Origin: an uncultured delta proteobacterium
GTDB lineage: Bacteria > Desulfobacterota > BSN033 > UBA1163
Reading direction: 5' to 3'
Assembly: GCA_963827685.1 (NCBI GenBank)
Contig: CAWHBU010000002.1
Location: 704,001-768,000 of the forward strand
Length of the DNA stretch: 64,000 bases
Made by a program: the position numbers and the translations under genes. The notes below the pieces were generated by a model. That model worked only from the letters and a program-made list of their open reading frames with translations, had not been told where the DNA came from and ran no database searches. Shown piece after piece: positions 30,893 through 33,723 of the stretch (position 1 is the first letter of the stretch; each line of letters starts with the position of its first letter).

Positions 30893-31417
30893 CGGACAGA
30901 AGGCAGGAGCTAATGACTTGGAGCAAGAGTCTGCTGAAATATTATGGGGACGATTCTCATTTTCATTTTAAATAACCAATCCTTACAAAATATTTTTTGG
31001 TCTACCCCTCTTTAACCTTCGAGCGTCTGTCGACCTTTTCAGAATATTCCTTATTGTTAGAAAATCTTCCCCTGATGTAGGCTTTGCAGGAATTAGTAAA
31101 CCGGCAAGACATAATTGCCGTCGAAATAATATGCACGCGTGCCTGTATAGACAGCAAACAAGTCGGGGATGAATGTTTCTTGCTGGCCGATGAATCAATC
31201 TCAGATCAATTTTGTAATAATGCAATGCATTTTACGTCACGGATGTATTAGGGGATTGGTCGTTTAACTTCAATTACTTTCTTGTCTATTGTACTCTTTG
31301 TCCATTCATTGATAAGAGATGGAATTTTCCATTAATCATAAGGGGTTACAAAACACCTTGAATGGATTAAGAATATATGCTAATTTTAGTTAATTGGTTA
31401 ATTTTGAGGAGAATAGT

Positions 31418-31657
31418 ATGCACATCGATGAAGACAAAAAATTTGATAAAAGAAACATTGTCATGAATATCAAGAACGGGATAGTTACCCAAAAGGATTA
31501 CGAAATCTTCCTATCAAAGTTGCCGGATGCAAGTGACAAACTATTTAATCCCGAAGAAACCTCGACTGATGAAAGCGAAATCGAATCAAAAAGAGAGAGT
31601 GAAATATCTTTTAAAAAAAGGGGGATAAAAAAGAAGGTAAAAGGAAAAGGGAAGTAA
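31418..31657 (+). CDS. Small conserved hypothetical protein
   Basis: GAGGAG then ATG 31418; FDKR..NIKNG....DY..FL..LPD pattern. Confidence 0.65.
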   Translation: MHIDEDKKFDKRNIVMNIKNGIVTQKDYEIFLSKLPDASDKLFNPEETSTDESEIESKRESEISFKKRGIKKKVKGKGK

Positions 31658-31658
31658 T

Positions 31659-32108
31659 TATCTGTGATTCAGACATTAGTCCATAGACCTCAGACATTAG
31701 ACCGAAGTGGAGGAAATGGCCAGAGATTATACAAAGATAAAGGCATGGCAGTTAGCAGATGCATTGGCACTCTTGGTATATAAGGCCACGAAGGAATTTC
31801 CAAAGAGTGAGATTTGGGGGTTGACATCTCAGATGAGAAGAGCTGCTGTATCCGTGCCAGCAAATATAGTAGAGGGCTCAGCCAGGAAGAATAGGAATGA
31901 ATACTTACAATTTTTATATATCGCTATTTCATCGTTAGCAGAATTGAATTACTACATCCGGTTTACAAACGAATTGGGATATTTAGACACCAATAGATAT
32001 AAACAATTATGGGCAACAGCTCAAGAAGGTTTGAGGACCCTGCAAGGGTTAATTTCTTATATCGAAAAGTCTGGTGTCTAAAGTCTAAAGTCCATTGTCT
32101 GAATTGTG
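31659..32108 (+). mobile_element. Four-helix-bundle gene cassette with inverted heptamer arrays and an 11-bp flanking direct repeat
   Basis: Five 7-mers at 31668-31702 inverted relative to five 7-mers at 32069-32103; AGGGAAGTAAT at 31648-31658 and 32109-32119. Confidence 0.65.
31707..32081 (+). CDS. Four helix bundle protein (23S rRNA IVP / Avd-like family)
   Basis: AWQLA...FPKSE.WGLTSQMRRAAVSVPANIVEG..R..RNEY.QFL.IA.SSL.E. Confidence 0.93.
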   Translation: MEEMARDYTKIKAWQLADALALLVYKATKEFPKSEIWGLTSQMRRAAVSVPANIVEGSARKNRNEYLQFLYIAISSLAELNYYIRFTNELGYLDTNRYKQLWATAQEGLRTLQGLISYIEKSGV

Positions 32109-32120
32109 AGGGAAGTAATC

Positions 32121-32459
32121 ATGCCAATTTATGAGTATCGTTGTAATCAATGCAATAGGGAATTTAGCGAATTATTTCTGAACCCTAAGGATATCCGTAA
32201 GGTTAGCTGTAAATACTGCCGTAGCCGAAACCTGACCAAATTAGTTTCTTCATTTCGTGTCCATCAAACTGAAGAATCGCGGTTACAAAACTTTGACACC
32301 TCAAAGCCCCAAGGGGATGAGTTCTATAAAGATTCAAGAAATGTAGGACTTTGGGCCAAGAAAAGGATGAAAGAATTTGGTGTAGATATGGGATCTAAAA
32401 TGGATGAAATTGTTGAAAGAGGCCGGACGGGAAAGATTCTTGAGGATTATAACAAATAG
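32121..32459 (+). CDS. FmdB-family zinc-ribbon protein
   Basis: MPIYEYRCNQC...CKYC. Confidence 0.88.
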   Translation: MPIYEYRCNQCNREFSELFLNPKDIRKVSCKYCRSRNLTKLVSSFRVHQTEESRLQNFDTSKPQGDEFYKDSRNVGLWAKKRMKEFGVDMGSKMDEIVERGRTGKILEDYNK

Positions 32460-32604: not shown

Positions 32605-33723
32605 ATGCAAGTGATGGAAGACAAAGACTATTATAAAATTCTCGGAGTATCAAGGGATGCTACCGAGGATCAAATAAAGAAAAGTTACCGAAAAATTGCG
32701 ATGCAGTACCATCCCGACAGAAATCCTGCTAATAAAGAGGCAGAGGAAAGATTTAAGATGGCTTCAGAAGCTTATGAAGTCCTTAGAGACCCTCAGAAAA
32801 GGGAGACTTATGATCGTTACGGGATAGAAGGTTTGAAAGGCACTGGGTTTACGGGTTTTAGGGGATTCGAGGACATCTTCTCCGCCTTTGGAGACATATT
32901 CGAAGACTTTTTTGGGTTCGGCACGACCGGCAGACGCAGGACCAGGGCTCGTCCAGGTGCGGATTTGAGATATGACCTCAAGATCTCATTCCGTGATGCG
33001 GCCTTCGGTAAAGAAACCGAGATCGAGATACCCAAGAATGTCCTGTGTGACGTCTGCAATGGAACCGGGGCCAACCCCGGGACTTATCCTACCCAATGCC
33101 CGAGTTGCAAAGGGACAGGACAGGTTACTCGCTCACAAGGATTTTTTACAATCAGTACGACCTGCGGCCACTGCCATGGTGAGGGAAATATCATTTCACA
33201 CCCCTGCAAAGAGTGCCGGGGGCATGGAAAGCTAAGAAAGAATAAAAAAATCCAAATAAAAATACCTCCTGGCATTGATACCGGATCTAAATTAAGAATC
33301 CGCGCTCAAGGAGAAGAGGGAGAAAGAGGAGGTCCTGCAGGAGACCTTTTCCTCTTTATTTATGTAGAACCGGACGATTTCTTCTCAAGGGAAGGAGATG
33401 ATATTATTTGCCAGATACCTATCAGCTTCGCTCAAGCTGCTATGGGAACGGAAATTGAGGTTCCTACCTTAAATGGTAAGAAGAATTTAGCCATCCCTAA
33501 GGGGACTGAAAGTGGCGAGATTTTGAGGATAAAAGGAGAAGGATTCACGAAAATAAGAGGTTATGGCCGGGGAGATCAAATTGTTCAGGTTATCGTAAAA
33601 ACCCCCAAGAATCTAACAAAGAGGCAGGAAGAAATATTGAGAGAATTTGAGGAATTGAGTAAAAAGAAGGATAAGGAAGGCGATGGGTGGAAAGGGTTGT
33701 TCAAGGCTAAGGTTGAAAGTTAA
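32605..33723 (+). CDS. dnaJ: Molecular chaperone DnaJ
   Basis: J-domain with HPD, G/F region, four CxxCxGxG repeats. Confidence 0.95.

Follow-up and report, generated by a model that had tools for sequence, protein, structure and literature searches.

The 64,000-nucleotide (nt) stretch of DNA analysed here (the window, to which all positions without a contig prefix refer) comes from the genome of an uncultured delta proteobacterium (G000). It carries a 450-bp cassette at positions 31659-32108 in which a gene for a four-helix-bundle (4HB) protein is enclosed by two inverted arrays of 7-nt units. The cassette is very probably a real, laterally acquired mobile insertion. With more reserve, although still at better than even confidence, we consider it the full-length copy, bearing an open reading frame (ORF), of a family of small foldback mobile elements that resembles the ORF-carrying intervening sequences (IVSs) of 23S rRNA. 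The unit entered between a small ORF, behind its stop codon, and an FmdB-type zinc-ribbon gene, ahead of its ATG, duplicating 10-11 bp. This duplication preserves the upstream stop codon and gives the downstream gene its purine-rich leader back. As a locus it is exceptionally clean, for it combines a recent insertion and an exact 11-bp duplication with many empty sites, a second independent arrival and decayed copies. G, C and L numbers are our handles for genomes, contigs and loci. The features of the locus are as follows.

31394..31657, + strand: upstream host ORF, 87 amino acids (aa), with a Lys/Glu-rich tail (ORF list).
31648..31658, no strand: left copy of the target-site duplication, AGGGAAGTAAT (direct reading and repeat search).
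31659..32108, + strand: inserted cassette, 450 bp, consisting of terminus, left array, 4HB gene, right array and terminus.
31659..31667, + strand: left terminus TATCTGTGA, also present in ORF-less copies (..CTGTGATTCAGAC).
31668..31702, + strand: left array, five 7-nt units with the core AGAC plus three variable bases.
31716..32081, + strand: 4HB gene, 121 aa, PF05635 / TIGR02436 (profile matches).
32069..32103, + strand: right array, five inverted 7-nt units, GTCT/GTCC+NNN.
32104..32108, + strand: right terminus (..GAATTGTG) with a TTGTG end.
32109..32119, no strand: right copy of the target-site duplication, AGGGAAGTAAT.
32121..32459, + strand: FmdB-type zinc-ribbon gene, 112 aa (PF09723, TIGR02605).
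32605-33723: dnaJ, 3' of the zinc-ribbon gene.

The initial annotation had described inverted heptamer arrays with the stop codon of the gene inside the right one, and an 11-bp repeat on both flanks. Direct reading bears out both, with AGGGAAGTAAT at 31648-31658 and at 32109-32119. The left units are TTCAGAC (31668-74), ATTAGTC (31675-81), CATAGAC (31682-88), CTCAGAC (31689-95) and ATTAGAC (31696-702), one of the five having AGTC in place of AGAC. The right units are GTCTGGT (32069-75), GTCTAAA (32076-82), GTCTAAA (32083-89), GTCCATT (32090-96) and GTCTGAA (32097-103). The 4HB ORF begins at ATG 31716, preceded by GGAGG, and the right array encodes its final four codons and its stop, so that the TAA (32079-32081) falls in the second right unit. 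Outside the cassette, the last codons and the TAA stop (31655-31657) of the upstream host ORF lie within the left duplication copy, and the right copy is the purine-rich stretch ahead of the downstream ATG. The right terminus of most other copies is ..GAATTGCAG, and the TTGTG end is shared with a copy at G000:C6 ~1000-1200. The ORF list holds no ORF in the 450 bp other than the 4HB gene, hence no transposase. A promoter scan placed no promoter-like site in the cassette (the region has 3 sites versus 5.8 expected), Rfam returned 0 matches at E up to 1, and the upstream 87-aa ORF matched no Pfam or NCBIfam family.

The arms exceed what random sequence of this genome provides. The inverted arms (31667-31702 and 32069-32104) span 36 nt at 75% complementarity, and their ungapped inverted-repeat score is 13.5, compared to a mean of 8.4 (sd 1.1) and a maximum of 13.0 at 400 random places in the genome. 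As RNA, the arm-to-arm duplex is predicted at -34.6 kcal/mol versus -16.6 +/- 3.6 for mononucleotide shuffles, 0 of 500 of which were as low; the whole 491-nt stretch has no unusual folding stability (z -1.03). The direct repeat AGGGAAGTAAT extends to 14 nt at 93% in the repeat search. An exact 11-mer direct repeat at 400-520 nt spacing also occurs in 28 of 3000 random 560-nt windows (~1%), which is common enough by chance to make the repeat alone weak evidence. The target-duplication reading is convincing because the repeat sits exactly outside the arms and because empty sites exist.

Empty sites were read in relatives of G000. Forty relatives were searched with the zinc-ribbon protein, and the 24 loci with a clear orthologue (55-87% identity) were examined, with genus membership taken from the labels of the tool. 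The 4HB gene is present in one of these loci and missing from the other 23. In 22 of the 24 the upstream ORF directly abuts the zinc-ribbon gene, and in one the sequence upstream is a different one. The 11 same-genus genomes that have the orthologous junction all lack the cassette, and four of these congeners (L020, L022, L025 and L028) carry a single exact GGGAAGTAAT right before the ATG. The junction reads ...ggggaagtaatc ATGCCG in L028, ...agggaagtaata ATG in L020 and L022, and ...agggaagtaatt ATG in L025; the target word is single-copy in each. Removing 31659-32119 from the window, which the initial annotation had said would restore a clean operon junction, gives ...GGGAAGTAATC ATGCC..., the same junction that is read in L028. 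The annotation had also called for an orthologous junction in relatives with no cassette and one target word, and this is what the relatives show (23 of 24, 4 of them exact). The contrary outcome that it named, relatives that all carry the gene and a family free of heptamer flanks, is not what we found: empty sites exist, and inverted flanks accompany 18 of the 18 family members in G000. Metagenome contigs from four DNA runs bridge the occupied form. Contigs from other loci share sequence with it only from 31660-31662 to 32104-32106, where their ends come loose; two of these loose ends (30 and 16 letters) resemble empty alleles, at lengths too short for proof.

The same junction carries about 30 extra bases (..ATCCGCTATCCGAATTG..) between stop and ATG in L027 (G012), where other congeners have 2-3. 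They may be a fragment left by some other heptamer family.

The cassette arrived laterally and, by our reading, twice at one junction. The only other occupied genome among the 24 loci is G023 (locus L026), which belongs to a different genus; the occupied junction also occurs in L097, a record titled Syntrophaceae bacterium. G023 is more distant from G000 than the 11 empty congeners, with 77% protein identity for the zinc ribbon and 61% for the upstream ORF. In 60-nt bins its cassette is 82-95% identical to ours and its flanks are 50-78% identical, with a step at the cassette borders. The proportion of synonymous differences (pS) is 0.278 for the 4HB gene and 0.854 (saturated) for the zinc-ribbon gene, and the nonsynonymous and synonymous divergences of the 4HB gene are 0.043 (dN) and 0.35 (dS). 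Within each genome the two flanking repeat copies have the local variant, which is G in G000 and A in G023. The divergences make the cassette far younger than the sequence on either side of it. We read the occupancy of G000 and G023 as two separate arrivals, since a single old insertion with many precise losses after it is much less likely; that both arrivals hit one junction implies some target preference.

Arms of the same kind are dispersed through the genome. The cassette arms match 14 other G000 loci, which hold ORF-less or internally deleted copies of 130-200 bp with common termini (..CTGTGATTCAGAC ... GTCTGAATTGCAG/TTGTG). One of them retains a 5' part of the ORF (~115 nt matched), and others enclose an additional heptamer hairpin of a different kind. 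A single composite ORF-less form is present at three places in G000 and at one in G042. For the ORF-less copy m4 (G000:C4:302504-302668) an empty site is found in the congener G004, where the duplicated TAAGGAGAG.. word occurs once. Copies in G042 keep both ORF ends and differ in the breakpoints of their internal deletions, which points to independent decayed insertions. The family thus decays to ORF-less copies with shared termini, and at least one ORF-less form has been amplified to several sites. Direct repeats were seen by eye at 10 of 15 sites read, in a range of 7-14 bp and mostly of 9-11. Their lengths are 11 (the cassette), 11 (the C6 copy), at least 8 (m4) and 7 (m2; 9 of 10), followed by 10, 9, 8-10, 7, 13 of 14 (G042) and 10 bp (Dehalococcoidia). 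A 12-nt terminus search that allowed up to 2 mismatches gave 387 matches, mostly due to chance, of which only the 9 exact ones were used. Well-matched terminus pairs in G000 are all at most ~200 bp apart, except for the cassette itself, and this genome, which is 94.5% complete, yielded no larger element bounded by these ends.

Like cassettes occur well beyond the genus. Proteins 79-90% identical to the 4HB protein are found with like arms at unrelated sites in Deltaproteobacteria bacterium, Smithella, Dehalococcoidia and Thermodesulfovibrionales records, which indicates that the cassette crosses phyla. The 90% identical protein, from a Deltaproteobacteria bacterium record, has the same termini and lies ahead of a different gene. 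The Dehalococcoidia copies (83/82% identity) are flanked by a 10-bp repeat, TGTTTGGAGA. Two of these, L098 and L099, occupy one site with the same 10-bp repeat and differ greatly in the number of heptamer units, the right arm of L098 extending past 130 nt. The arrays therefore expand and contract, and available sections of a study of the Coxiella 23S IVS report that array length likewise varies among strains (PMC4990558). The initial annotation had proposed a minimal transposase-less unit that inserts at a gene junction with target duplication; the empty sites, the dispersed derivatives and the copies in other phyla uphold that proposal.

The design extends to the whole 4HB family of the genome. 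G000 has 18 PF05635 genes, and all 18 lie between inverted short-tandem arms. The arm units are mostly 7 nt long, with some periods of 6, 8 or 9, and vary between cassettes (GTGATTC, GGCAGAA, GAGTTTA, GCGGAAT and others). An inverted-repeat score of at least 13.5 is reached by 17 of the 18 cassettes and by 0 of the 400 random places. The orientation of the ORF matches the upstream neighbour in 17 of 17 called cases and the downstream neighbour in 16 of 17. The expectation of the initial annotation that 4HB genes in general would have both periodic inverted flanks and direct repeats stood for the flanks, which are inverted and of short period in 18 of 18, and failed for the repeats, which in exact form and at 9 nt or more accompany one of the 18. 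That the cassette at 31659-32108 alone has a clean repeat fits its being young. Period-7 arrays are the commonest in the genome, with 117 at a strict threshold compared to 7 to 56 for periods 5, 6, 8 and 9. A crude array-pairing rule recovered 4 of the 18 cassettes and was not used for counting ORF-less elements. About seven longer array 'pairs' were rejected, since they proved to be ordinary genes whose spacers on both sides contain a hairpin.

Several of these arrays occur in more complex settings. G000 cassettes 1, 4, 8, 13 and 15 (e.g., C3:846715-847235) have an extra complete hairpin on one side of the ORF, made of a direct plus an inverted array besides the enclosing arm, which may be a nested ORF-less copy. 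GCGGAAT-type arrays are found in many successive spacers of one gene cluster at G000:C4:504000-523800, where ordinary genes look enclosed by inverted arrays.

Two other junctions are hot spots that hold different hairpin elements in different congeners. The junction before a recN-like gene carries, in various congeners, a GAGTTTA cassette, a GTGTCCG cassette, an 82-bp GTGATTC-type hairpin, a 95-bp GGAGTTG-type hairpin or a palindrome resembling repetitive extragenic palindromes (REPs). The junction behind an epimerase-like gene holds a GTGATTC cassette, a GTGTCCG cassette, a RAYT-like gene with REP hairpins, or a DUF559-like gene between two arm families. A GTGTCCG cassette with one protein type is found at both junctions in G004, again a duplication to a new site. 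In L088 (G012:C192:540-1700) the RAYT-like (IS200-like Y1) gene and its REP-type hairpins lie between GTGTCCG arm remnants, at the junction that in G000 is the site of a 4HB cassette; they form a separate element. In L089 (G009:C295:1-1030) the arm to the left of the DUF559-like gene is of the GTGTCCG type and the one to its right of the GTGATTC type; such a mosaic suggests that one junction was occupied several times in succession. Another repeat in G000, at L069:4689-4799 (G000:C3:850688-850798), is unrelated, measures 110 bp and has many copies in all congeners. It is inserted with a duplication of ~9-10 bp (GGAGCT..A), and its site is empty in G010, G011 and G004.

The 4HB protein scores 113.4 bits with PF05635 (cut-off 33.8) and 109.7 bits with TIGR02436 'four helix bundle protein' (cut-off 24), the family known as '23S rRNA intervening sequence protein' or S23p. 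This family is very large, one scan of reference genomes having given 456 confirmed relatives of the 4HB protein. PADLOC profiles of anti-phage defence matched 0 families at E 0.01. By sequence similarity only, its relatives in the Protein Data Bank (PDB) are 2gsc (E 3e-19, the nearest) and 2rld (E 0.005), with five chains each. A protein of the S23p family is described as a pentamer in available text of PMC4990558, which cites Lin 2006.

The arms follow a sequence motif rather than a pairing rule. At least three GAC trinucleotides at an exact spacing of 7 or 8 nt precede the ORF in 60 of 80 relatives (47-90% identity), and in a control region no trinucleotide is so spaced in more than 2 of 78. 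Conservation of the units follows a 4+3 pattern, with AGAC fixed and three positions free. Such a pattern, together with the persistence of GAC, would be explained by a sequence-specific factor that travels with the arms, and the 4HB protein appears to be the sole co-traveller. We therefore propose, tentatively and at somewhat less than even confidence, that the 4HB protein may be an arm-binding factor. This proposal draws on sequence comparison: every 4HB subfamily uses a unit of its own, the (A/G)GAC core accompanies this subfamily across phyla down to ~50% protein identity, and what is conserved is the motif and not base pairing. The protein would bind its own 7-nt arrays and so give end specificity, and a separate activity would cut and join the DNA.

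The unit would have no promoter of its own and would be read from the host operon; the ORF is co-oriented with its neighbours in nearly all 18 cassettes. On the analogy of the rRNA counterparts alone, the arms in the transcript may form a stem that is cut by RNase III, and the operon would then suffer hardly any harm from the insertion; we give even weight to RNase III processing of the cassette transcript and to its absence. The strand bias of the cassettes, 15 of 18 being on the G-rich strand (GC skew), is confounded with gene orientation.

A number of observations weigh against parts of this interpretation. At 5 of the 15 sites read no direct repeat was found; among the 18 ORF-bearing G000 cassettes only the one at 31659-32108 has an exact repeat of at least 9 nt outside the arms; and no duplication is visible at the two hot-spot junctions, where the arms directly adjoin the stop and start codons. 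Five relatives are rich in arm copies (10-16 matches each) and have no close 4HB homologue: the best is at 41% identity, no homologue at E 1e-10 turned up in three of them, and all five have other PF05635 genes. ORF-less copies thus persist without a cognate gene, which fits decay once the full-length copy was lost and fits another mobiliser equally well; it gives no support to the idea that the protein acts in trans. The 4HB gene of the G023 copy (L026 / L097) has an in-frame TGA at codon 87 and is probably decaying. As for recognition of the arms, protein and arm type are inherited as one unit, and correlation alone does not show that one reads the other; L110, a relative at 61% identity, has GGCAGCA arms and not GAC arms. 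We know of no enzymatic activity of such a 121-aa four-helix bundle and see none evident in it, and to our knowledge the PF05635 family still has no function some twenty years after its structures were solved. For the RNA stem, arm mismatches comprise 26 G:T, 25 A:C and 62 others, and this lack of an excess of G:T over A:C gives no support for pairing specific to the sense RNA. The sense strand is more stable than the antisense strand in 14 of 18 cassettes, only marginally so (p 0.054), in a comparison that included 200-nt flanks and was noisy, as duplexes ran far past the arms. Finally, the available part of PMC4990558 concludes that S23p is probably not made in Coxiella.

An unlinked conventional transposase of the DDE type could account for many of these facts, by moving the cassette as a passenger with staggered cuts of ~9-11 bp and the 4HB gene as cargo, much as for mobile insertion cassettes (MICs) and MITEs (miniature inverted-repeat transposable elements). 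We think this unlikely, though not negligible. On this view the termini and arms would be ends read in trans, and the 4HB gene would have some other task, e.g., on its own transcript. Direct repeats that cluster at 9-11 bp are as expected of a staggered-cut enzyme, and some genomes that lack the cognate 4HB gene do have ORF-less copies. Class II elements classically have termini of the CTG...CAG type and derivatives with internal deletions, which also counts in favour of a transposase. On the other side, no longer element with these termini was found in G000, its good pairs being at most ~200 bp apart or the cassette itself. At least a dozen arm families in one genome enclose a 4HB gene, more than one or a few transposases would be expected to serve. 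Only a 4HB gene has ever been found inside, in 18 of 18 G000 cassettes; the 80 of 80 loci fetched from relatives were selected by the 4HB gene and are no test of cassette content. Movement at the RNA level, in which the arms form an RNase III stem that frees a small mRNA and uncouples the neighbouring cistrons, and the unit spreads via reverse transcription or recombination, is improbable in our view. The initial annotation had named processing or mobilisation through RNA as possibilities, and nothing that we saw points to the latter. The arms do pair, and RNase III excision is documented for the rRNA counterparts (available text of PMC4990558). Co-orientation with host genes is strict, including in the 3 of 18 cassettes on the C-rich strand, and the downstream neighbour of ORF-less copies is on the same strand in 11 of 13. 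These points are opposed by the arms themselves, which show no G:U excess and keep the 4+3 motif rather than complementarity, and by target duplications with defined termini, which fit DNA transposition. We saw no poly-A or other retro-signature, Rfam finds nothing, and the single reverse transcriptase of the genome, on another contig (L095:1496-2773; G000:C4:392995-394272), has RVT_1 and GIIM domains and is of the group II intron maturase type.

The gene could also be ancestral at the zinc-ribbon junction and have been lost in relatives by deletion between the 11-bp repeats. Short direct repeats can indeed recombine to delete precisely, and the more distant G023 has the cassette at the same junction. 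This history is very improbable, as it needs many independent precise losses (in 11 of 11 congeners and 11 further relatives). It is also at odds with a cassette much younger than its flanks, with repeat copies that carry the local variant in each genome, and with the same cassette type at unrelated sites elsewhere. A remnant of a diversity-generating retroelement (DGR), with the 4HB gene as the accessory gene avd, is suggested by weak similarity to PF22296 (35.5 bits) and NF033474 (32.2 bits). Both scores are under the curated cut-offs (40 and 80), no reverse transcriptase is nearby, and the genome has 18 such genes, each with its own arms, which makes this origin extremely improbable.

The preferred reading, a foldback mobile element with its own ORF, finds its closest parallel in the 23S rRNA IVSs. 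In Coxiella burnetii the 23S IVS is cut out by RNase III and has a heptameric repeat, GACAGAT, upstream of S23p, and an old idea holds that the ORF serves mobility (available sections of PMC4990558). Both systems place an S23p-family gene in the loop of a terminal-inverted-repeat stem, measure ~430-450 nt and have heptamers before the ORF, as far as those sections describe the IVS. The cassette differs from the 23S rRNA IVSs (Coxiella burnetii; S23p of Leptospira and Xanthomonas type) in lying at a stop/start junction of a protein-coding operon, and target duplication, empty sites, lateral arrival and dispersed ORF-less copies are documented for it. The 23S rRNA gene of G000, on another contig (G000:C7:12618-15662), has no period-7 array and is ~120 nt longer than the Rfam model. 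We conclude that the cassette is an IVS-type foldback element outside rRNA.

Other mobile elements share parts of the design. MITEs and MICs, such as MIC231 of the IS231/IS4 group, are transposase-less and have terminal inverted repeats. The cassette resembles both in its terminal inverted repeats, target duplication, many copies and internal deletions, as well as in having no transposase. It differs from both in that G000 holds no transposase-bearing parent with these ends, the only ORF-bearing relative encoding a 4HB protein. Its arms are moreover tandem 7-nt arrays, and the full-length form always comes with the same kind of small gene. REPIN/RAYT and IS200/IS605-type systems have a Y1 transposase and no target duplication. 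Like the cassette, they combine a small gene between inverted units with gene-less doublets scattered in intergenic regions, whereas the cassette has duplications of 7-14 bp, a four-helix-bundle gene and no Y1 gene in or beside it. Eukaryotic foldback transposons have arms built of short tandem repeats. The likeness lies in long inverted arms of such repeats, whose number varies between copies; these transposons belong to another domain of life and another size class, and we claim no relation of sequence or protein. The Avd proteins belong to the same four-helix-bundle fold family and show weak profile similarity; they differ in that our protein scores below the family cut-offs and has no linked reverse transcriptase or template repeat.

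Arrays of 7-nt repeats have been reported without such a gene. Available sections of two papers describe the heptanucleotide repeat TAACTGA in Beggiatoaceae (PMC4679880), and GGGAATC in Xanthomonas and GGGGA(C/T)T in Nostoc (PMC4692102). These intergenic arrays often lie right before start codons, as ours do, and Xanthomonas has ~70 convergent (inverted) pairs. The same sections contain 0 mentions of four-helix-bundle or S23 genes and do not treat the arrays as cassette arms. Within the open-access literature and bioRxiv, our searches gave no publication connecting PF05635/S23p genes to heptamer arrays other than those in rRNA.

The findings matter for annotation and for the reading of operons, as in these bacteria several hairpin elements come and go at operon junctions, which are hot spots of turnover. 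They also bear on heptanucleotide arrays, a long-noted and unexplained feature of many bacterial genomes, and the zinc-ribbon locus makes both mobility and the role of the protein directly testable by experiment. In a broader reading, which we regard as speculative and rather unlikely, the PF05635/TIGR02436 proteins would recognise the ends of bacterial mobile elements that form a large and so far unnoticed class and encode no known recombinase, each protein ring reading its own array. For the cassette described here this array would be NNNAGAC, with five units per arm, and elements of this class would insert at stop/start junctions and the tips of rRNA helices with a duplication of ~9-11 bp. 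If this is true, the 23S rRNA IVSs, many heptanucleotide arrays and intergenic hairpin repeats would be full-length or decayed forms of one element.

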